Assembly (NCBI GenBank): GCA_046536775.1
Contig: JAWDMD010000006.1
Span: 1 to 21,944, forward strand
DNA length: 21,944 bases
Direction of reading: 5' to 3'
Source: Candidatus Nanopusillus sp.
GTDB taxonomy: Archaea; Nanobdellota; Nanobdellia; Nanobdellales; Nanobdellaceae
The notes below the pieces were generated by a model. The model saw only the letters and a list, made by a program, of their open reading frames with translations, had not been told where the DNA came from and ran no database searches. This document shows positions 5,005-21,944 of the stretch, piece by piece (the stretch's first letter is position 1; every line of letters begins with the position of its first letter). The translations under genes were made by a program, and so were the position numbers.

Positions 5005-5283
5005 TTAAGATATATTTAAAAAGGATTTTGCACCTTTTAATATTTTAAATATTTTAAATTTTTTTATATTTTGTAGATATAATAAAAAAATTATCTTATA
5101 CAGATGTTTTTTGTTTATAGACAAAATAATTCTTTTATTTATTTCTATTTTATTCAAATGTAAATCATAATAATATATATATCCAAAATATTTAATAAAA
5201 TCTTTTTTTAATTTTTCTTCATCGAAAAAATCTATTAAAATATATCTATTTTTAATTTTTAGAGCCTTTGGTAATATTACCAT
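5005..5283 (-). CDS. Probable RNase P protein component 2 (Pop5/Rpp14-like), short and divergent
   Basis: The N-terminal LPKALKIKNRYILIDF resembles archaeal Pop5 LPPTLRxKxRYIxFxI. The later ILSINKKHLYKIIFLLYL and KILKGAKSF segments align loosely with the Pop5 'vrCdrxxxxxxxxAL' and 'SGTIk' regions. Its position directly upstream of psmA is the conserved Pop5 slot. Sequence support alone is weak because of the low-complexity AT-biased composition. Confidence 0.5.
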   Translation of the reverse strand: MVILPKALKIKNRYILIDFFDEEKLKKDFIKYFGYIYYYDLHLNKIEINKRIILSINKKHLYKIIFLLYLQNIKKFKIFKILKGAKSFLNIS

Positions 5284-6203
5284 TCCTCAACATTATTCAT
5301 CTTTGCTTCAATATCTTTAAGATTTAATTTTTCTAACATTTCCTTATATCTGTTTCTTATTGTAACTTCAGTTATTCCAGCAACTTCTGCTATATCTTTT
5401 TGAGTCTTTTGTATTCCATGCTTTACACATGCTAAATATATTGCAGCTGCCGCAACTCCTGCTGGACCTCTGCCTGCAGTTATATCAGATTCCTTTGCTT
5501 TACTAACGATATCTATTGCAGTAGATATTACTTCTGGTGGTAAGTTTAATAATGAAGAGAATCTATGTACATATTCTGTAACATCTATTGGTTGTATTTT
5601 TATCTTTAATGCTTGTAATAAGTGCTTATATGTTCTTCCCAATTCTTTTTTATGTATATTTGATGCTTTAACTATTTCATCTATTGTCCTTGCAACATCA
5701 TGTATTCTACATGCTATATATGTACATGCAGCAATAACTGTTTCTACAGATCTTCCCCTAATTAACCCCTTTTCGACAGCATCTAAATATAACTTCAATG
5801 CTGTTTCTTCTACTTGTTTTGGTAATTGTAAGAATGAAGAAATCCTTTTTAACTCTTGCTGTGCTAATTTTAGATTTCTTTCATAAGAACTTGTAGATCT
5901 TTGCTGCCATTTTTTTAATTTTCTAGTTAGTGTAATATCTTCATCCTTTGATTCTGCTCTTCCAATTTCTGTTGATATCATACTTGGTATATTGGTATAT
6001 CTCATTGCACTACCAGTTCTTGATAATTTTTCTGCATCTTCTGAATTTATTGTCCTATTTTCCTTTCCTAAATATTGAACTTCTTCAATTACATATCCAC
6101 ATTTTGCACATACTAGTTCTGCTGTCTTCTCATTGTATATAAATTCTGTACCTCCACATACTGGACATTTCAATTCAGGATTTTTTATAAGCTTTTGGAC
6201 CAT
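5277..6203 (-). CDS. tfb: Transcription initiation factor IIB (TFB)
   Basis: Has the N-terminal zinc ribbon CPVCGGTEFIYNEKTAELVCAKCGYVIEE, a B-finger/linker, and two cyclin-fold repeats (RGRSVETVIAACTYIACR...; GRGPAGVAAAAIYLAC...QKDIAEVAGITEVTIRNRYKE). Confidence 0.95.
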   Translation of the reverse strand: MVQKLIKNPELKCPVCGGTEFIYNEKTAELVCAKCGYVIEEVQYLGKENRTINSEDAEKLSRTGSAMRYTNIPSMISTEIGRAESKDEDITLTRKLKKWQQRSTSSYERNLKLAQQELKRISSFLQLPKQVEETALKLYLDAVEKGLIRGRSVETVIAACTYIACRIHDVARTIDEIVKASNIHKKELGRTYKHLLQALKIKIQPIDVTEYVHRFSSLLNLPPEVISTAIDIVSKAKESDITAGRGPAGVAAAAIYLACVKHGIQKTQKDIAEVAGITEVTIRNRYKEMLEKLNLKDIEAKMNNVEEW

Positions 6204-9190: not shown

Positions 9191-12100
9191 ATGAGAAAAA
9201 TATATTTATTATCTTTTCTTTTATTTTCTTTATATTCAGTTTTTTCTCAAGGATATAATATATGGCATTCAGAATCTTTATATAAACCAGTAACATTTTT
9301 GGGTATAAATTTATTGGATAATAATCTATCTGTAGGTCAAACATTATATTATAATGTTTATATAAATTATAGAGATATTTATTATATACCTAATACATCA
9401 TTAGTAATACAAATAATACAAAAAAATGATAATAATAATATTTATCCATTCCAATTTACATCTGATAATGAAGTATATGAATATGTAATAAAAAATATAT
9501 ATTTACAACCGGGAGAATATTTAAACATACCATTAAATTATACAATTCCATATAATTTACCTTCTGGATATTATTATATTGTTGCATATTTATATACACC
9601 TCTAAGTGAAATAAATGGTTTGCCATTTATATATTATCCAGGATCATATCAAGAATTTTATATAAATAACCCAAATAATGTTCCAGAAATTTATATTATA
9701 AAAAATGATACATATTTAAGTTCCCCTGATTTATATACATGGGGTAGTTTATTATCATCATCAGGATATTATTATTCTTCATTAAGTGGACCTTCCGGTT
9801 ATGGTGTTTCAAACTATATTAATTTAACAGTTGGTGTATATTCGAGTATAAATACAAATGCTACATTGAATATTCTAATATCTCCATGGGATGATATTTT
9901 ATATAATCCAGTATATAATTATACTGAAAATGTACAATTAAATGAAGGATATAATACAATAAATATTCCATATATAAATGTTGCAACATTGAATCCAAAT
10001 GCATATTCATTAATAATAAACCTATTATATAATAATCAAACAGAATCAATATATAGATTAAGATTTATTGTTTTAGGTCCAACAACAAGATTAGATGGTG
10101 TTTATTTACAAGGTAATGGAAATTTAACATTTATAGTAGCACCATCTCCAGATCACTATACATATCCAGTTACCCAAAATGTAGTAGCAGAAGTTTATTC
10201 AAACACATTAGGATTTAAAGAAAATATATACTTAGGAAATATAAGTTGGAATAGTACACAATTTACTTATGTAAATCTACAATTACCATTAAATTCTACT
10301 AGCTTTGATTTATGTATAAACTTATATTCAAATAACAATTTAGATTATGGATATTGTACATATTATATTTTAAATCAATCAAATCAATATGGAATTCCAA
10401 TAAGTAATCTACTTTATGTAAATTATACAAACAATTACTTCTATATATGTTCAAATATTTCTGGAATATTAAATATAGGATATAATTCTGAATCAAACAT
10501 AATATATACTACAAATATAAATAATAATTGTTTAAATTATACATTGGGTAATGGGGTTTATTATATTTCCTTCTATTCATCCCAATATTCAAATCTATGG
10601 ATAATAAATAATACAGTAATACAAAACAATATAAGTAAAAATCAAACACAGCCAATAAATAATGTGCAAAATAATTATAATTATCCAAACTATTATTTGG
10701 TAATATTAATAATATTTATTGCAATAATATTATTTATGATACTAAAAAAGAAAAGATTATTTATCTTTGCATTAGTTTTATTACCTATATTATTTAATGT
10801 ACATTCTCAAGAACTATATCTAAGCTCAAATCAAATATGTACACCTTCAGATTCATTAAATATAACAACACAGGGATTTAACGGATCGGTAACAGTTTCT
10901 TATGAATTTTATAATTCATCGAATCCCTCAAATGTCTATGCAAGTAATACATATCAATACAATGGAAATATATACTATACATATAATTATACAGTATACT
11001 TCAATAATTTGCCATTAAATTTGTCAAATAATATAAATTCTACAATAATAGATTATAATATAACTGTTCAGAATTGTACAGGAGGTATTAAAAATTTCCA
11101 ATTGTCATCTTGTGATCAATATAATTATAATGGATCAATATATTTAAATTATCCATATTATTTTGAATATTATACAAATCCAATATATCAAGGATCAGAC
11201 GATGCAGGACAAATAATTCTAGGTTGTCCATCTTCAAATAATTTGTTAAATAATACATACTTTAATTTTACATTAATTTTACCAAATGGAACAAGTGTAG
11301 TTACTAGAACAAATTGTTCAGGATCTGGAGATCCAGATTGGGGTCAGAATCTATGTGATTTATATGTAAGTAATTATGATAACAATATTGGAAATTATAC
11401 ATATTATGGAGAATATTATTATAATAATATTTTATTTAATCAATCATTTATTAACAATCCATTACAGGTATTAGTAGCTAGTTCTGGAGAATTTACTACA
11501 GAATCATGTAAGCATGCAAGAACAATAACAAATACTAATTCAAATCCTTTATCTATAAGTTTCGCATATTATGGACCATATTCAGGATCATATTATACAT
11601 ACTATAATGGAATATATGTTATAGCACAAAATACTTCTGTAGGATTTAATGTAGGTTATGGATATAACTGGTTGTGTAGTGATGGCGTTACGCGTACTGT
11701 TACACCATCAGTTGCTGCTTGGTTATATAGTTCAAATCAATATTATAACCAAAATTCATTCCAGTATATACAAGGTATATCAAATCTACCATTTAACTTT
11801 ACACAATATAATATAGATAGAAATACTGTTTATAATACATATTCAAATGAAGGATTATTATTAATTCCACCAGAACATTTACCTTCAGGAAGTTCTTACT
11901 TTACTTTATATAATTTTAGTAATAATGCGGGTTATTATGCAATATATCAAGATTATGTAAAAACAGTATGTGATAATCCGACAGATTATATATGTGATGC
12001 AGATGGAAATTTATGTAATATTGGTCATATAGTAGGAGAGGCAGAAGGATGGTTACCAATATCCTCAGAACCAGGATATTATTTATTAGTAATAAATCCA

Positions 12101-13456
12101 AATGCTACTGTATATTTGCAAAATTTAACTTACTATCCATACAATTATAGTACAAACCCTGGTGATGCAATTTATATTGGTAATATAACAAATGTTGGAA
12201 TTGGAAATCTTACAGTAATTACAAATTGGGATCTCCCAAACAATTCAACTAGTTTCTTATTACAGCAACAGCAATATTCCCCATTATATATTTATTTCCC
12301 AACAAATCTATGTCCACATCAAAATTGTACAATAAATTATAGTGTAGCATATCAAAATGCATATGGATTAACAGTATATAATCCTGTAACATATTATGGA
12401 TATGTAAATATTAGCTGGGATACATTAAATATATATACTAATCCATCATTAACACAAATAACATATGGACAACCTTCAAATATAACCTTAGCGGTACAAA
12501 ATACAGGACCAGTACCTGCTGAAAATATATCTGTACAAAATGTATATTATGATCCAAATTGTATACAGGTATTAAATACTGGTAGTCAAATAGGTTCATT
12601 AAATACAAATCAAGTAGGTGACTTAAATGTAGAAATTAATATAACAAATCTATATTGTTCTCCACAAGATTATTATATAACATTTACAATTTATGGATGG
12701 AATACTTATATATATAATTATTCAATAATATTGCCAATAAGTTATATAATTTCTCCACCAAATGGAGCACAATTGCAATCAATAACAACATTTAATATAA
12801 CAGATGACAATGCACAAACATGTTATATAATATTTAATGGAGCACAATTCTCTAGAAATTGTAATTCAGATTTTGCATATCAACAATATATGTGTGCAGG
12901 ATCATTATGTAATACACAAATTCAATCAATAGATAATTATGCAGAGTTCTATGAAAATTATACATATTATAACTATTTAACAAATCAGTCATCAATAATG
13001 GGAATAGCCGTTGCAACAAATGTAATAAGTTTATATGTTGGACAAGAATATAAATATACAGTCTTAATAAAGAATTTAGTACCAACAAATATTCAATGTT
13101 CTCTAATACCAATTCCATCAACCACAAATGATAATGCTATTGTTACTAGTTATAGTATAAATGGAATAAATAGTAATGAATCTACTATAAGTCCTTATGG
13201 ATCTGCAGAATTAGATATAAATATTTTAGGAGCTTCTAGCGGTGTAAGTAAATTACTTTATGGTATAATATGTAAGTCTACATATGGTTCTTCATCATTT
13301 AGTACTCAAATTCCAGTATATGTATTTGGACCAAATAATATAATAGCAAACTATACGCAATCTCAAATAATAGTATCTGAGGAAGTATCTCCAACAAATT
13401 TAATTGGAATTGGAGGTTTAATATTGGGATTATTTGCTTTGCTTAATATAATCTAA
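9191..13456 (+). CDS. Giant secreted/anchored surface protein (S-layer-like or adhesin-like), possibly two fused precursors (aa 1-~521 and Met516-1421)
   Basis: 1421-codon ORF. It has an N-terminal Sec-type signal peptide MRKIYLLSFLLFSLYSVFS|QG, and the body is extremely rich in Asn/Tyr/Ser/Thr with dozens of N-x-S/T sequons. An internal TM anchor-KKKR-second signal peptide lies at 10691..10807, and a C-terminal TM anchor NLIGIGGLILGLFALLNII follows. The second half carries many Cys. No enzyme motifs found. Confidence 0.8.
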   Translation: MRKIYLLSFLLFSLYSVFSQGYNIWHSESLYKPVTFLGINLLDNNLSVGQTLYYNVYINYRDIYYIPNTSLVIQIIQKNDNNNIYPFQFTSDNEVYEYVIKNIYLQPGEYLNIPLNYTIPYNLPSGYYYIVAYLYTPLSEINGLPFIYYPGSYQEFYINNPNNVPEIYIIKNDTYLSSPDLYTWGSLLSSSGYYYSSLSGPSGYGVSNYINLTVGVYSSINTNATLNILISPWDDILYNPVYNYTENVQLNEGYNTINIPYINVATLNPNAYSLIINLLYNNQTESIYRLRFIVLGPTTRLDGVYLQGNGNLTFIVAPSPDHYTYPVTQNVVAEVYSNTLGFKENIYLGNISWNSTQFTYVNLQLPLNSTSFDLCINLYSNNNLDYGYCTYYILNQSNQYGIPISNLLYVNYTNNYFYICSNISGILNIGYNSESNIIYTTNINNNCLNYTLGNGVYYISFYSSQYSNLWIINNTVIQNNISKNQTQPINNVQNNYNYPNYYLVILIIFIAIILFMILKKKRLFIFALVLLPILFNVHSQELYLSSNQICTPSDSLNITTQGFNGSVTVSYEFYNSSNPSNVYASNTYQYNGNIYYTYNYTVYFNNLPLNLSNNINSTIIDYNITVQNCTGGIKNFQLSSCDQYNYNGSIYLNYPYYFEYYTNPIYQGSDDAGQIILGCPSSNNLLNNTYFNFTLILPNGTSVVTRTNCSGSGDPDWGQNLCDLYVSNYDNNIGNYTYYGEYYYNNILFNQSFINNPLQVLVASSGEFTTESCKHARTITNTNSNPLSISFAYYGPYSGSYYTYYNGIYVIAQNTSVGFNVGYGYNWLCSDGVTRTVTPSVAAWLYSSNQYYNQNSFQYIQGISNLPFNFTQYNIDRNTVYNTYSNEGLLLIPPEHLPSGSSYFTLYNFSNNAGYYAIYQDYVKTVCDNPTDYICDADGNLCNIGHIVGEAEGWLPISSEPGYYLLVINPNATVYLQNLTYYPYNYSTNPGDAIYIGNITNVGIGNLTVITNWDLPNNSTSFLLQQQQYSPLYIYFPTNLCPHQNCTINYSVAYQNAYGLTVYNPVTYYGYVNISWDTLNIYTNPSLTQITYGQPSNITLAVQNTGPVPAENISVQNVYYDPNCIQVLNTGSQIGSLNTNQVGDLNVEINITNLYCSPQDYYITFTIYGWNTYIYNYSIILPISYIISPPNGAQLQSITTFNITDDNAQTCYIIFNGAQFSRNCNSDFAYQQYMCAGSLCNTQIQSIDNYAEFYENYTYYNYLTNQSSIMGIAVATNVISLYVGQEYKYTVLIKNLVPTNIQCSLIPIPSTTNDNAIVTSYSINGINSNESTISPYGSAELDINILGASSGVSKLLYGIICKSTYGSSSFSTQIPVYVFGPNNIIANYTQSQIIVSEEVSPTNLIGIGGLILGLFALLNII

Positions 13457-13741
13457 TTTTTTTAATCTTTTTCTTATTTCCAATATTGCATCATGAATTG
13501 CAGCACCTAAAAATAGCGTTGTTAATATATATAATTCATATAAGTATGTAATCATTCCAATTATTACTGGTATTATACCAAATACTGATAGATATGCATG
13601 ATGTATTTTTGCCCTATATTTTTTTGTATTTGTTTTAATTTCAATAAAGAATTCTGGTGAAAATTTTCTAATTATATAATCTGCTGAGAAATATCCTACT
13701 AAGAATGATAAACTATAGGTCATTATAGTAATATCGATCAT
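13430..13741 (-). CDS. Small hypothetical membrane protein (about 3 TM)
   Basis: 103-aa ORF with an ATG start that occupies the otherwise empty gap before rps24e. It has hydrophobic segments with two conserved-looking His (KIHHAYLSVFG, GAAIHDAILE). Its 3' end overlaps the convergent giant ORF by 27 nt. Confidence 0.45.
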   Translation of the reverse strand: MIDITIMTYSLSFLVGYFSADYIIRKFSPEFFIEIKTNTKKYRAKIHHAYLSVFGIIPVIIGMITYLYELYILTTLFLGAAIHDAILEIRKRLKKLDYIKQSK

Positions 13742-16537: not shown

Positions 16538-17608
16538 TTAAATATGCTTTTTATATATGGAATGTATATAAATTATTACTAATCCTATAATTGCTAATAT
16601 TAGTAAGTTTATTGAAAATAAAATTATGAATAAAGGAAAATTAATTAAAGTTCCTTGATAAGTATAGTAGAAATAATTTACTAAATTCATTAATATAAAT
16701 GGTATTCCTGAAACAATTCCCAAAATTATTTTTTTACTGTCTGGAAACCTATGATATAAATACGCGTGAATTGCGGTAAAGAAAAATAAAAACATAATTA
16801 TAATATTTTGAATAATGTAAATTATATTGATTTTTGTTAAGAAAAATAGAATTGTAAAGAAAATAAATAGAAATATTATTAATATTAAAATATACATTGT
16901 GAATCCCTCCGGCTTATTATCAAATATTCTTTTAATCATTAGCATTAAAATAAATTCTAATATTGAGAATAAGGATATAGTAAATAATATTAAAATATTT
17001 TGAACAATTAAAGAAAGTATTAACTGTACAGATAAAAAAAGAAAAATTATGGAGAAGATAATTTGTTTATATTTGTTTAAAAGATTTAATAAACTTAAAT
17101 GATATATTTTTTTATCATCCAAATTGAATAAAAATCCTAGAAGGGATATAAAAAATAGAGAATAAATATTTATAATATTATATAATGTTATAAATAAAAC
17201 ATATATTAGAGAAATTATTAATATTATTATTTGTTTTCTATTTATAGATAATTTATTCTCTGCGACAAAATTTCCAAAGAAATAAAATAAAATAAATGAA
17301 AAAAATACATAAACAAAATATTTAAGTAAAATATTATTAAAAATATTTAATATAGGCAATAAAAAAATTAATAAATATAAAATTTTTATCATATTGAATT
17401 TCGTGTTTTTCAAGAAATAATATAAAACAAAGGAGTAAAATATTCCAAATAAAATATAATATAAATTTGTAAAAAATATTATAGATATTGGGAATATTAT
17501 TAAATATAATATAAATATATGTTTATTGATATTTTTGTTTTCGTCAATTAATCTATCTATGATAGTTTCACCCATTATATATAGAGATTCATTAAAACTT
17601 TTATGCAA
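16538..17608 (-). CDS. Hypothetical polytopic membrane protein, paralog B of the surface operon
   Basis: About 10 hydrophobic segments and no Cys. The C-proximal block FFFTAIHAYLYHRFPDSKKIILGIVSGIPFILMN aligns with the gene at 19543..20754. The track start (17608) is TTG, overlapping the upstream stop by 8 nt. An alternative ATG lies at 17575..17573. Confidence 0.6.
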   Translation of the reverse strand: MHKSFNESLYIMGETIIDRLIDENKNINKHIFILYLIIFPISIIFFTNLYYILFGIFYSFVLYYFLKNTKFNMIKILYLLIFLLPILNIFNNILLKYFVYVFFSFILFYFFGNFVAENKLSINRKQIIILIISLIYVLFITLYNIINIYSLFFISLLGFLFNLDDKKIYHLSLLNLLNKYKQIIFSIIFLFLSVQLILSLIVQNILILFTISLFSILEFILMLMIKRIFDNKPEGFTMYILILIIFLFIFFTILFFLTKINIIYIIQNIIIMFLFFFTAIHAYLYHRFPDSKKIILGIVSGIPFILMNLVNYFYYTYQGTLINFPLFIILFSINLLILAIIGLVIIYIHSIYKKHI

Positions 17609-18248
17609 TTCTAAAATATGTTTGATTAATTCTCTCTAAATATACTGTTACAAATTGATAAAATGTAATATTATTTATCGAATAACATGGTATATAATTA
17701 CATATAATATTTCCATTTGTATTTTCTGTACATGTTATATTTCCAGATATATTTGTTGGGAATAGAAATACAAAAGTTTGATTAGAACTATTTTCATTAC
17801 TTAGACAGAAACTATATAAAAAATAATAGAAATCTGAATAATAATTTTTACATATAGTTAGTTTAATATAATCTAAAGAATAAGCTATGGAAATTGGATA
17901 TGTATATGTATTACAATTTCCATTAAAATTTATGATTCCAAAACTATAATTATCTATTTCTGCTCTAAATGTATAAGGAAATATTGTACAATTTGGAAGT
18001 TCATTATAATATGTTTGATTAAATTGTTCTATATTATTTACTGTTGTAAAATATATTGGATAGTTTGGATATCCTATACAATTTGGAGAAAATAGATCAT
18101 ATATTATTTCTTGTTCATATGAAAAAGAAGTTTGTTCTTTATAATTTGTTAAATTTATATTAGAAAATATAGCTAACAAAAGTATCATTCCAACCAAAAA
18201 TAATACTGTTAATATTGTTATAAATATAATAGATAGTTGTTCTTTCAT
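17601..18248 (-). CDS. Cys-rich, sequon-rich extracellular protein with an N-terminal signal/anchor
   Basis: MKEQLSIIFITILTVLFLVGMILLLAIFS is followed by an Asn/Tyr-rich ectodomain with 8 Cys and many N-x-S/T sites (NLT, NQT, NCT, NYS, NIS, NIT...). ATG start. Confidence 0.65.
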   Translation of the reverse strand: MKEQLSIIFITILTVLFLVGMILLLAIFSNINLTNYKEQTSFSYEQEIIYDLFSPNCIGYPNYPIYFTTVNNIEQFNQTYYNELPNCTIFPYTFRAEIDNYSFGIINFNGNCNTYTYPISIAYSLDYIKLTICKNYYSDFYYFLYSFCLSNENSSNQTFVFLFPTNISGNITCTENTNGNIICNYIPCYSINNITFYQFVTVYLERINQTYFRIA

Positions 18249-18310
18249 TTTATATGAATATATCTAATAAAAATATTCTTTCCATATCTTCTCTTTCATT
18301 ATCAAATTGA

Positions 18311-19546
18311 TTAGATATACTGTTGTATGCATTCATCTGGGAATGATATTGTTTCTGGGCATGTTGGATTTGGGCATTGTCCAGGTAAACAGGCAGGGCA
18401 TTGCTGTCCACCAATTATACAACTATAGCATTCAACCTGGGTTGAAGTATAATATGGAAATGTAAATATTTCTTCTGAACCTTGTTGATTTATATTCACA
18501 TTACCGCAACCATTCTGAGAAGAACACGAATATTGCTGATTTTCTAATGTACAACTTTTAGATATTACTTGATTGTTTGTTGTATTATATGTTTCAGTAC
18601 AACTATATATGCAATTTAAATAATAATAATATGTTATATTTTCATAAAAAACTATAGAAGTAATTGCTATTGTTTGAGGATAAGTGTTTCCATTATAATA
18701 TACATTATATTGATTATCAGAACATTTTAATATTACTCTACATGCAATTTCTTGTGGATATAAACATATCTGACATGATTGAATATTTGTACATTGATAT
18801 GGAATTATCGTTTCATTACATTGAATGTTTGGATCATTTGAAAATTGCTCGAAATCTTGTGCACAATTATTAGTTGTAACTTTATTATATATTTCATTAT
18901 AGCAATCCTGATAAGAACATCCCGAAAAAGCTCCATCTTGAGAGAATTGAAATGCTAAATTATATAAATAAAATGCAGGATTATTTGTTATATTTGATGT
19001 ACTTGCATAAGGAATTATCGAACCAGAAGAAGGACCTGTAATATTTATATATATACCTTGAACATAAACAGGAAAATTATAATTGTATTCTCCAGAAGTT
19101 ATATTATTACAATCTCCGATAATTCCTGCTTGATAGCTATTTGAAAAATTAAAAGATATATTATATGGATAATAATATTGATACGCAGATAAATATTGTT
19201 CTCCATAGCTTATTAAGCTTCCAATTCCAGAAGTTAGCAAATTATTATAGTATTGAATTGCATTCTCGCATGATTGTGGTAATATACATCTATAGGGGAA
19301 AGAAGCCCAATTTTCATTTCCCCATCCATTTGTTCCAGCTACATATGATTCTGAATAACCCTCTTGTGTTAATACTGTTTGTAAATATCCTAAAAAATAA
19401 TTTGATAATGTAGATAAAGAGGTAAATCTGTTAAAAACAATGTTTTGATTATAATTGTATGTTAATGCATAAAAAGATAAAAGGATTATTAATATAGCAA
19501 CTGTTAAAAATAAAACCACATAGACACTTTCTATTTGATTTCTCAT
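18311..19546 (-). CDS. Cys-rich, sequon-rich extracellular protein with an N-terminal signal/anchor and a C-terminal Cys-Pro knot
   Basis: MRNQIESVYVVLFLTVAILIILLSFYA is followed by about 380 aa rich in Asn/Tyr/Ser/Gln, with about 24 Cys by my count. It ends in ECYSCIIGGQQCPACLPGQCPNPTCPETISFPDEC. Its ATG overlaps the upstream stop (ATGA, 19543..19546). Confidence 0.7.
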   Translation of the reverse strand: MRNQIESVYVVLFLTVAILIILLSFYALTYNYNQNIVFNRFTSLSTLSNYFLGYLQTVLTQEGYSESYVAGTNGWGNENWASFPYRCILPQSCENAIQYYNNLLTSGIGSLISYGEQYLSAYQYYYPYNISFNFSNSYQAGIIGDCNNITSGEYNYNFPVYVQGIYINITGPSSGSIIPYASTSNITNNPAFYLYNLAFQFSQDGAFSGCSYQDCYNEIYNKVTTNNCAQDFEQFSNDPNIQCNETIIPYQCTNIQSCQICLYPQEIACRVILKCSDNQYNVYYNGNTYPQTIAITSIVFYENITYYYYLNCIYSCTETYNTTNNQVISKSCTLENQQYSCSSQNGCGNVNINQQGSEEIFTFPYYTSTQVECYSCIIGGQQCPACLPGQCPNPTCPETISFPDECIQQYI

Positions 19547-20754
19547 ATTTTTAATTTAACATGTAGGTATATAAATGTTAATATAAGGATTGGTGTTACT
19601 AATCCATGTATAATACCGAGTGCCATTAATATATTTGGTACAGATATTAGATGTATACTGCTTGGGCCTCCAAATAATACTGATTCAAGGAATTCTCCAG
19701 TTATATTTTGTAACAAAACTAAAATACCAATAGACATACCCAATGCTTTTGTAATTGCTTTTTTACTATTCCTATATAATTTATAATGTATACCTACAAA
19801 GAAAAATAATAAGGCAATTAGGTATCTAGTATGTAATGCTGTAGGAGTAAAATCTGTATATAACAAATATAATTCTCCAAAAAATATTATTAAGACCATC
19901 GTTATAAGTAAAAAATAGTTTGTTGGTACATTATATTTTAAATTTCTATAAACTAAAAAGTAAATGATAAGTTCATATATAGATAAAAATATTAAGGATT
20001 CATATTCATATAAATAATATTCTCCGCTTAAGCTATTTATAACTAAATTTTTATATATTAATAATTGATTTAATGAAAGAAAGATTTGAATTATAATAAT
20101 AAAAAATATTAATAAAAATATGTATTTTTTATATTTATAGATTTCAAAGATTCTTTTAAATATTTTTGTTCTTGATAATAATATTTCATTTCCATTAAAA
20201 TACATAACTAAGAATAAGAAAATTGTAAGTATAATAAATAATAAGGTATAAATTATCTCAAAAGCATAAAGATGTAAACCCACATAATTAAGGAACATCG
20301 ATAGTATATAGTTTATTTTTACATCAAGATCTGTAGTTACAGAATTATAAATAAGTTCAAGGAAAAATTGTATTATGAATAATATTATTGAGATTATATA
20401 AAATATTAATGATTTCTTTGAAATATATAAATTGTTTTCAAATAAATAATATCCCATAGAAAATGCTATAAAATAAAATATCCAATAATTTACTATATAA
20501 GTAAATATTGATGGAAATGGGAAAGGTAGAGGTAAATTAGTATAAATTCCAAAAATTCCAATTGGTATATATAATGGAAATATTAATTTATATATTAAAG
20601 ATGTATTTTTTGAATTTTTTAATATAAAAGATAATAAGAATAAATATATTGCACCATAAATAATTATATTAATATTAAAGTTGCTAATATAAATAAAAAG
20701 TAAAAACAATATTAAATATGTAATAAATAAAATTTTATCTTCTTTTTTTACCAT
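19543..20754 (-). CDS. Hypothetical polytopic membrane protein, paralog A of the surface operon
   Basis: 403 aa with about 11-12 hydrophobic segments and no Cys. The C-proximal block FFFVGIHYKLYRNSKKAITKALGMSIGILVLLQN is shared with the gene at 16538..17608. Its ATG overlaps the upstream stop in the string ATGGTAA (20748..20754). Confidence 0.65.
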   Translation of the reverse strand: MVKKEDKILFITYLILFLLFIYISNFNINIIIYGAIYLFLLSFILKNSKNTSLIYKLIFPLYIPIGIFGIYTNLPLPFPFPSIFTYIVNYWIFYFIAFSMGYYLFENNLYISKKSLIFYIISIILFIIQFFLELIYNSVTTDLDVKINYILSMFLNYVGLHLYAFEIIYTLLFIILTIFLFLVMYFNGNEILLSRTKIFKRIFEIYKYKKYIFLLIFFIIIIQIFLSLNQLLIYKNLVINSLSGEYYLYEYESLIFLSIYELIIYFLVYRNLKYNVPTNYFLLITMVLIIFFGELYLLYTDFTPTALHTRYLIALLFFFVGIHYKLYRNSKKAITKALGMSIGILVLLQNITGEFLESVLFGGPSSIHLISVPNILMALGIIHGLVTPILILTFIYLHVKLKI

Positions 20755-21944
20755 ACTGTTAATTCAGAAACAAGATATCCGCCTAGGAATGGTGTATCTA
20801 CTGGTAAATATATATAATAAACATATGTATTTGTATTTGGTGGTATTGAATATCCCAAACTTATACTATTTTGGCTACCTTGATATATATATGCATTTAG
20901 TTCTTCAGTATTTCCTGTATTTGTAATACAATATGCTCTTGCCATTGCAACACCATTTCCTCCAGGATGAGGATCATAATATACAGCAGAAATTATAAAT
21001 TGATTCGTGTTTGGATCTCTATCGTCTATTACCCATTTAGTAATATTAAATCTATAAAATCCTTCACTGTTTATATTAATATTTCCTAAGTAAACCAAAG
21101 GACATTCTTTTCCAACAATAACTCCAGTTACATTTTGTGTATCATTAAATACACCAGTTGGACAATCTATTATCCCTCCGCTTAGATTGTATTCACATAA
21201 AGGATCTGCTGCTAAAAATACATAATCTGGTTCTCCACTTTCATTTAAAAATGAAATATATAATCTTATTACCTCATGCCATGGATAATCTATAAATACT
21301 TGCTGACAATTTGGTAATATATTTACTATACCTCTATAAAATGATCCAACAATTAATTCTTGATTGCCCTGACTACTTTCGCAATCAGAATTGCCTATAT
21401 AATATGTACCAAATTCTTCTTGGCATATATCATTTAAATATTGTTGTGGAATTATAAATTCTGCTAGTCTATTTATATCAGTAGCTGTTTTATAAGTAGG
21501 GGGACCTTGATAATAATATGGTATAGATGTTAGATTGGGATTATCAGTCACGGGACATGAGCCCTCCTTATAATGGCATAAATATCCAGAAAAGAAATTA
21601 GGCAAACTAGAGGTAGGCTGAGCTATTACGCTAGGTCCTTCATAATTTGGAAATAAATTCCATTCACCCTGAGGACAATATACAGAGGCTTCTGTAAAAT
21701 TATAATTTGGAAATATTTCTGTTAATGGCATACAGTATCCATTTTGTACAGCTTGAGATTGAGAAAGGGCATTATATAATGTTGGTAATCCCCACAAACC
21801 TATTGATCGAGATTGATGAAAAGGTGCTGTTGCATTTACCCATCCTGCTCCATATAAAGTTCGAGTTACTGGCATACTAATATTTTCTTTATAATTATTC
21901 ACAAAGAAATATGTATAATTCCATTCATACCATTGTGTACCATC
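20748..21944 (-). CDS. Cys-rich extracellular protein, C-terminal portion; gene continues past the right window edge
   Basis: The track start at 21902 is a GTG. The frame stays open upstream to the edge (…DGTQWYEWNYTYFF-V-NNYKEN…), so the true start lies outside the window. The visible part has 11 Cys and many sequons (NAT, NFT, NLT, NES, NLS, NDT, NVT, NIT) and is poor in Lys. No enzyme motif found. Confidence 0.7.
   Translation of the reverse strand, partial: DGTQWYEWNYTYFFVNNYKENISMPVTRTLYGAGWVNATAPFHQSRSIGLWGLPTLYNALSQSQAVQNGYCMPLTEIFPNYNFTEASVYCPQGEWNLFPNYEGPSVIAQPTSSLPNFFSGYLCHYKEGSCPVTDNPNLTSIPYYYQGPPTYKTATDINRLAEFIIPQQYLNDICQEEFGTYYIGNSDCESSQGNQELIVGSFYRGIVNILPNCQQVFIDYPWHEVIRLYISFLNESGEPDYVFLAADPLCEYNLSGGIIDCPTGVFNDTQNVTGVIVGKECPLVYLGNININSEGFYRFNITKWVIDDRDPNTNQFIISAVYYDPHPGGNGVAMARAYCITNTGNTEELNAYIYQGSQNSISLGYSIPPNTNTYVYYIYLPVDTPFLGGYLVSELTVW

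Follow-up and report, generated by a model that had tools for sequence, protein, structure and literature searches.

Viral glycoprotein precursors such as bunyavirus Gn/Gc (e.g., that of SFTSV, the virus behind severe fever with thrombocytopenia syndrome; PMC5113920) and hepatitis C virus (HCV) core-E1 (PMC5402940) are divided by host signal peptidase at internal signal peptides (Flaviviridae review, PMC7601889). A cut of this type, made at the c-region, would yield two glycoproteins, each with its own anchor, and leave the signal on the upstream product. A similar predicted layout was found in a 21,944-nucleotide (nt) stretch of a Candidatus (Ca.) Nanopusillus sp. metagenome-assembled genome (MAG), hereafter the window, in which a single surface-protein open reading frame (ORF; 9191..13456, + strand) carries an upstream anchor, followed by a short stretch predicted to be cytoplasmic and by an internal signal peptide. 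Comparison with relatives in other DPANN archaea indicated that this ORF is very probably an ancient in-frame fusion of two adjacent genes; the whole statement, in which the product of the fused ORF is moreover cut by signal peptidase into two membrane-anchored proteins, is considered rather probable. DPANN/Nanoarchaeota symbionts attach to their hosts via surface proteins, of which almost none have been characterized.

The orthologs of ORF 9191..13456 (product MFP3317021.1 / RXN79_01275) include Nps_00425 in N. acidilobi, DDW05_00570 in Nanobsidianus stetteri, MJ1_0095 in Nanobdella aerobiophila and YN1_4260. The Nanobdella study listed MJ1_0095 as one of five "other cell surface proteins" that have immunoglobulin (Ig)-like folds, numerous sites for glycosylation and "a C-terminal TM helix" (TM, transmembrane). 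The published N. acidilobi and Nanobdella accounts of these orthologs make no mention of an internal anchor-signal junction or of a fusion. The parts of the protein are as follows (aa, amino acids; K/R, Lys or Arg; a slash marks a predicted cleavage site).

9191..13456, +: the fused ORF for the surface protein, 1421 aa and a stop codon.
9191..9247, +: N-terminal Sec-type signal peptide MRKIYLLSFLLFSLYSVFS, predicted cut S19/Q20; [IV][FY]S/Q is kept across orthologs.
9248..10690, +: ectodomain 1 (aa 20–500), a beta-sandwich array (Ig- or macroglobulin-like) with 19 N-glycosylation sequons, homologous to stand-alone type-I surface proteins of 510–600 aa.
10691..10744, +: TM1 YYLVILIIFIAIILFMIL (aa 501–518), predicted stop-transfer anchor, aligning with the C-terminal TM segment of stand-alone N-type proteins.
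10736..10738, +: Met516 codon (ATG) within TM1, conserved, with no evidence of use as a start codon.
10745..10756, +: KKKR (aa 519–522), predicted cytoplasmic loop, combining the basic tail of the putative former upstream gene and the n-region of the internal signal peptide.
10757..10807, +: predicted internal signal peptide, comprising the h-region LFIFALVLLPILF (aa 523–535; nt 10757–10795) and the c-region NVHS (aa 536–539); the N-terminus of P0146, a stand-alone relative of the C-half, aligns here.
Between nt 10807 and 10808, +: predicted signal peptidase I cut S539/Q540 (NVHS/QELY), leaving a C-part of 882 aa.
10808..13399, +: ectodomain 2 (aa 540–1403), a beta-rich part that contains Cys and 37 sequons; homologs of its core are stand-alone secreted or anchored proteins of 800–1200 aa, which in other DPANN archaea are encoded directly 3' of N-type genes.
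13400..13453, +: C-terminal TM anchor LIGIGGLILGLFALLNII (aa 1404–1421), from the hydropathy scan.

The ORF runs through its 1421 codons without interruption, and the in-frame succession of TM segment, KKKR and second signal that the first-pass annotation of this DNA had pointed out was confirmed. A hydropathy scan of the whole protein gave only four strongly hydrophobic segments, namely the N-terminal signal, TM1, the internal core and the C-terminal TM segment, the last bearing out the expectation that the second part ends in an anchor of its own; a weaker 11-residue stretch at aa 1269–1279 also exceeded the 11-residue window threshold. KKKR is the sole basic cluster of the protein and holds 4 of its 28 Lys and Arg residues. 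Met is limited to four positions (1, 516, 1234, and 1270). Sequons were more numerous than in composition-matched shuffles in both ectodomain 1 (19 vs. 11.5 ± 2.8) and ectodomain 2 (37 vs. 21.0 ± 3.9), an enrichment that fits a predicted extracellular location of both large domains. Judged on the sequence, the arrangement at the junction is not due to chance.

Relatives of each half were sought with a profile of aa 1–1190, for which four diverse members were used; run against 1.84 billion representative proteins, it returned 183 matches. About 100 of these were stand-alone proteins of 510–600 aa covering profile positions 1 to ~520 only (N-type), e.g., P0038 (516 aa, positions 5–520) and P0046 (527 aa, positions 3–521). 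They begin with a signal peptide and close with a TM segment and a short K/R tail, as in IIIIKAVKKRKYE and MMLLLRRKKEEKYYD, each followed directly by the stop. Their C-terminal TM segment aligned column for column with TM1-KKKR, and the proteins stop 0–10 residues past the basic cluster; TM1-KKKR had thus been correctly taken for the element that anchors a complete ~520-aa protein at its C-terminus and stops its transfer. A second class of matches, 500–1200 aa long, covered the C-half only (profile positions ~520–1177). These proteins start with a normal signal peptide, and in P0146 residue 13 aligned to profile position 519. Split relatives were reached solely by this index-free profile search: word-indexed protein searches with alignments gave nothing beyond the first search, the N/Y/I-rich composition saturating the 8000-candidate prefilter. 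No Pfam or NCBIfam family scored above threshold for either half or for the split relatives. The AlphaFold model of the N-half (predicted local distance difference test, pLDDT, 58.6) showed a string of beta-sandwich domains, for which Foldseek retrieved generic macroglobulin/Ig-like beta-sandwich arrays only (template-modelling scores ~0.2); the C-half model (pLDDT 47.2) was of insufficient quality for a fold search.

In other DPANN archaea the two halves occur as separate neighbours. On L017/L018, an N-type gene of 541 aa (hidden Markov model, HMM, E 3e-39), ending in IIIRKRK and TGA, is joined by an ATGA overlap to a C-type gene of 1101 aa (E 2e-28). The latter begins with a canonical signal peptide (MKYICKLKKKLKRRTHLLVAVLFLIFICKLAYS/A), ends in its own TM segment and has motifs in common with the C-half of the window protein, including CSVSGDPEWG and YEDYINAVCDSPDYIC. 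A metagenome scan, seeded with N-type motifs from an 11-sequence subset since the 20-sequence N-family alignment was too diverse to serve as seed, yielded 16 loci with an N-type gene. Wherever a locus extended far enough downstream, it had a large gene with a signal peptide that started −14 to +10 nt from the N-type stop, and in seven loci (L020, L022, L023, L029, L030, L032, and L033) this gene matched the C-half HMM with E values of 1e-11 to 1e-27. The downstream gene of L014 aligned weakly (score −1.8) at the right place in the C-half and was not counted as C-type; only 234 of its codons lie on the contig. Where members are named, those of the split set come from Ca. Aenigmarchaeota MAGs and those of the fused set from Nanopusillaceae/Nanoarchaeales MAGs. 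Both genes of the split cassette are annotated as unnamed hypothetical proteins.

The split cassette (L017/L018, L020, L022, L029, and L032) resembles the window ORF in that both halves are homologous and in the same order, and in the succession of signal peptide, TM segment with K/R tail, second signal peptide and, often, a C-terminal TM segment. It differs in that its two ORFs are separate, with stop and start overlapping or 1–10 nt apart, whereas the window holds one frame with the second signal internal. The window protein is not encoded by two separate ORFs (11 of 11 genomes have a single one) and represents the fused variant of the N-type/C-type cassette. Because both halves occur elsewhere as separate, adjacent genes with overlapping stop and start, a fusion origin is strongly supported.

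The ancestral cassette would have encoded two type-I, heavily N-glycosylated surface proteins from translationally coupled genes. Gene A would have consisted of a signal peptide, a beta-sandwich ectodomain, a TM segment and a K/R tail; gene B, starting −14 to +10 nt from the stop of A and often at an ATGA, of a signal peptide and a large Cys-containing ectodomain, often followed by a C-terminal TM segment. In the Nanopusillaceae lineage, the stop codon and the frame offset between A and B would have been lost, giving a single Sec substrate. From an ATGA-type overlap, a change of one or two bases would suffice to join the frames and to place TM segment, K/R cluster and signal peptide in one ORF. 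Some distant homologs have a second Met right after the basic cluster (RRGAKGV-M-YLFIL in P0011/P0012 and KKRG-M-FVIL in P0034), which may be a relic of the old gene-B start codon.

The junction of TM segment, basic cluster and hydrophobic segment was present in all 12 database homologs, each a single protein, and the basic cluster after TM1 in all fused homologs. Comparison of orthologous loci, which the first-pass annotation had proposed as a check, turned up no ortholog without the junction: 11 of 11 Nanopusillaceae loci from species-representative genomes consist of one uninterrupted ORF that includes it, and separate genes were met with in other DPANN archaea. An assembly or frameshift artefact was ruled out, as the same ORF recurs in the complete genomes of three cultivated strains (N. 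acidilobi CP010514, Nanobdella AP019769, and YN1 AP031373). Distant fused orthologs (P0012, P0034, P0036, and P0186) also have the junction. Three of them, P0012, P0034, and P0036, aligned end to end with the window protein straight across it at ~30% identity, and lie in the same neighbourhood as in the window (SBDS/proteasome/TFB, membrane protein, LonB, the gene itself, ThrRS, S24e, S27ae, UDG, and arginase). Since syntenic orthologs down to ~30% identity have the fused form, the fusion is old, and the fused state represents one old orthologous locus; the suggestion of a fusion of adjacent genes was thus upheld, that of a recent event was not.

Several variants were observed among the fused loci and their relatives. 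In Ca. Nanopusillus sp. CTOTU25739 (L011:1-3951) the junction is kept as KKRK-IFVILLLLLVTILMQNNIYG/Q, the first ~230 residues of the C-half are missing, so that it begins near the SCSHA motif, and a divergent insert of ~200 aa lies further on. The first domain of the C-half of the YN1 ortholog (P0009 / L009) contains a lineage-specific Ser-rich insertion, TVNSSSSSSFTINGQPVNSSGTVCLPSLNGNSTCGVPV, at aa ~640–680; among close relatives, non-synonymous diversity peaks in the region around it (window aa 577–601). Upstream of the fused ortholog P0036 (L035:1764-4976), LonB is 1070 aa long, compared to 612–620 aa in the window, L012, and L036, and could contain an intein or another large insertion. 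In two further proteins, P0112 (804 aa) and P0174 (2178 aa), an N-type domain precedes a TM segment, a basic cluster, a second hydrophobic segment (e.g., IIFMRKTKLLKNKLFLFLGLISSFLAILSINSNVTMA/YP) and other downstream parts; both may be independent fusions of the same cassette type.

The internal segment at aa 519–539 has the properties of a Sec class 1 signal peptide, namely a basic n-region, a short h-region and small or neutral residues at −3 and −1, and departs from that definition in its location, as 518 residues of the ORF precede it. The window ORF fits a polyprotein layout, in that it combines an upstream anchor with a basic loop predicted to be cytoplasmic, an internal signal peptide and a separate anchor for each predicted product. 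The internal h-region comprises 13 residues in the window and 12–15 in the Nanopusillus/Nanobdella clade, vs. 11–17 in the N-terminal signal and 18–22 in TM1. On an approximate Hessa-type scale that takes no account of position and is to be read as indicative only, TM1 summed to −2.4 to −8.3 kcal/mol, and no 19-residue window of the internal segment fell below +2 kcal/mol in the clade. The internal site, [IV]-[HY]-[SG]/Q, matches the N-terminal [IV]-[FY]-S/Q including the Gln at +1, so that the likeness noticed earlier between the internal S/Q and SVFS/QG holds (NVHS/QE); the cut as then numbered was one residue off. Across the clade, [IV] at −3, Ser or Gly at −1 and Gln at +1 are invariant at both sites, and the h-regions vary. 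In distant lineages the two sites shift in parallel, with VYG/L alongside VYS/Y in P0011 and VHG/E alongside VFS/S in P0034. A Sec-only export system and a signal peptidase gene have been reported for Nanobdella.

Two fates of such a product were weighed. Cleavage by signal peptidase I after V-H-S539 is the most likely one, on the following grounds together with the parallel shifts and the reported Nanobdella export system and peptidase gene given above: the internal segment descends from a cleavable N-terminal signal; its core matches a signal peptide rather than TM1 in length, with an insertion score too weak for a stable TM helix; and the −3/−1/+1 site copies the N-terminal site and outlasts variation of the core. 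The alternative is a fusion product that stays whole, with TM1 and the former signal peptide forming a hairpin (KKKR cytoplasmic) that tethers the two ectodomains and the C-terminal TM segment as third span. This seems unlikely, although it would agree with the continuity of the ORF in every genome, with the two helices drawn by AlphaFold (499–518 and 524–537) and with the four TM segments counted by the N. acidilobi annotators. Against it, the second core of the clade is not only short and poorly insertable on the above scale, it also contains Pro or Gly, and the c-region and +1 Gln are better conserved than the core, in a segment derived from a cleavable signal.

Under the favoured reading, cleavage at the internal site, signal peptide 1 would be cut at S19/Q20 and ectodomain 1 exported, after which TM1 would stop transfer and leave KKKR in the cytoplasm. 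The former signal peptide of gene B (aa 523–539) would then re-open the translocon for export of ectodomain 2, to be anchored by the C-terminal TM segment. A cut after S539 would restore the two ancestral proteins at a fixed 1:1 ratio. Product 1 would keep the hairpin of TM1, loop and h-region as its anchor, and product 2 would begin at Gln540. Both the topology and the cleavage of the fused product are predicted from sequence features.

A number of points weigh against fusion followed by cleavage. The downstream gene showed no detectable C-half similarity in four split loci (L019, L021, L025/L026, and L031; five contigs, as L025 and L026 carry the same genes), these genes being too divergent to call. 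Small residues at −3 and −1 are common, so the site pattern alone is weak evidence. Nps_00425, the N. acidilobi ortholog, was undetected in published shotgun proteomics, and the AlphaFold models of the two halves, given their low confidence, are considered uninformative on processing. In P0011, P0034, and P0112 the second apolar stretch extends to 17–23 residues with marginal TM scores; such runs in distant orthologs scored +0.9 to +2.0 and would be marginally insertable, and an uncleaved hairpin is physically more plausible in these three proteins.

The first-pass annotation had also considered an internal start, whereby the C-half would be made, also or only, from Met516 as a pre-protein (MILKKKR-h-c) that has a signal peptide itself. 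Although only 4 of the 1421 residues are Met, one lies three residues before KKKR, and its column is invariant in a 10-sequence alignment spanning 32–86% identity. P0004, however, has Ile in this position, and stand-alone N-type proteins (P0049, P0051, and P0046) also end their TM segment in M-[KR], so that the Met can be ancestral to gene A. Half of the window genes (10 of 20, e.g., those at 318, 2941, 5277-6203 on the − strand, 9191, and 13796) have a TATA-like box, YTTAWA, ~−27 to −31 from the ATG (about −29), with most genes that come first in an operon among them, and no Shine-Dalgarno-like motif was seen ahead of the window genes, which suggests that their transcripts are mostly leaderless. 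Upstream of Met516 this box was absent in 12 of 12 sequences (the window and the 11 orthologous loci; background 0.11) and no Shine-Dalgarno-like motif was found; without an upstream stop codon there would be no termination-reinitiation coupling either. Synonymous diversity upstream of Met516 was 0.32–0.35, above the gene mean of 0.19. At the junction itself it dipped mildly (0.10–0.14 vs. 0.19 ± 0.08), and as this lies within noise it was not accepted as evidence of an overlapping element.

One locus offers a lead for the internal start. In the YN1-like L013:1100-1400 (ENA contig NODE_692, 6x coverage), an in-frame TAA ~50 codons before TM1 (GTYYI-stop-FYSSQYS) leaves the C-half expressible only from MMKKKK, and the gene caller starts it at MMKKKKLFVV; the frame otherwise runs through the junction. 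This TAA could be a sequencing error, a pseudogene or a natural split/nonsense variant, and is treated as a lead, not as evidence. Taken with the foregoing, production of the C-half from Met516 is very unlikely, and a single fused precursor is retained as the preferred reading.

The identity of the two halves was compared with that of archaeal S-layers, of which their sizes had been reminiscent. As anchor and canopy subunits of a Nanopusillus S-layer, analogous to SlaB and SlaA, they would account for the resemblance to S-layer components in sizes, heavy glycosylation (sequons), Ig-like folds and membrane anchors, and the N. acidilobi ortholog is indeed labelled "S-layer domain, arCOG02079". 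Sulfolobales SlaA/SlaB likewise are two glycosylated surface proteins with Ig-like domains that are encoded side by side, one of them membrane-anchored. However, the genes for SlaA and SlaB are not joined and stand in reverse order, with the canopy ahead, SlaA lacks a TM segment, and these genes are the most highly expressed of the cell, whereas the window ortholog MJ1_0095 is weakly expressed, ranking below 100th in Nanobdella. The top transcript there is MJ1_0160 (NEQ300-like), which together with MJ1_0707 has been proposed as the Nanobdella S-layer and anchor; MJ1_0095 was filed elsewhere, as noted above. In the account of Wurch et al., the predicted S-layer protein is Nps760. A cryo-electron tomography paper on ARM-1 was set aside, as it deals with a different organism. 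Neither similarity to SlaA/SlaB nor a match to a Pfam or NCBIfam S-layer family was found. An S-layer role is accordingly very unlikely, and the annotation is to be corrected on two counts: the protein is not a plain C-terminally anchored one, and it is probably not the S-layer.

The window (G+C ~23%) encodes housekeeping genes including TFB, proteasome alpha and LonB, and several of its gene pairs have a 4-nt ATGA overlap (e.g., 629/632, 1288/1291, and 14077/14080). Convergent with the large ORF lies a 103-aa membrane-protein ORF (13430-13741, − strand) that overlaps its last 27 nt (13430-13456), i.e., the codons of the C-terminal TM segment and the stop; its position matches that of Nps_00430, annotated as "uncharacterized membrane protein". 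Further downstream, a gene cluster at 16538-21902 (− strand) includes two N/Y/Cys-rich proteins whose N-termini resemble class III (type IV pilin/archaellin-like) signals, MKEQLS-IIFITILTVLFLV at 17601..18248 and MRNQIES-VYVVLFLTVAILIIL at 18311..19546. A third similar N/Y/Cys-rich protein (20748..21902) and two large polytopic membrane proteins (16538..17608 and 19543..20754) are encoded on the same strand. This cluster may be a pilus or surface-filament locus.

The analysis defines a previously undescribed, conserved two-gene surface module across several DPANN lineages, in one of which the two genes were joined and yet all topogenic signals were kept. If made, the two products would presumably work as a 1:1 complex at the surface of the symbiont and may have a part in host contact. 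Cleavage would create a new N-terminus at Gln540, or at QTITV in the cultivable Nanobdella aerobiophila. If cleavage is true, the locus would be a rare prokaryotic instance of polyprotein processing by signal peptidase, the first archaeal one as far as found, and would offer a natural system for stop-transfer and re-initiation at the archaeal Sec translocon.

A text search of the literature for archaeal internal signal peptides gave no comparable archaeal case; the "internal signal peptide" mentioned in a review of the twin-arginine translocation (Tat) pathway was rejected as a parallel, as it refers to the Streptomyces Rieske protein. Compared to the viral precursors, the nearest parallels to its predicted mode of action, the window ORF is a cellular archaeal gene without sequence relationship to them, and the predicted cleavage would be due to an archaeal type I signal peptidase at the cytoplasmic membrane. 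Within the prokaryotes, FbcH of Bradyrhizobium japonicum is reportedly a cytochrome b/c1 precursor that is split at an internal segment resembling a signal peptide. Like the window ORF, it is said to unite genes found apart elsewhere, and its product to be cut into two membrane proteins at an internal signal, as is predicted for the window ORF; in contrast, FbcH belongs to a bacterial respiratory complex, has a polytopic upstream part and consists of unrelated proteins. The SlpA precursor of Clostridioides difficile also gives rise to two surface subunits, which are separated after export by the cysteine protease Cwp84; in contrast to the window ORF, it has no internal TM segment or signal peptide. 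Set beside these systems, the fused ORF may well encode the first natural archaeal cellular polyprotein resolved by type I signal peptidase at an internal signal, and thus a cellular counterpart of viral Gn/Gc-type precursors.

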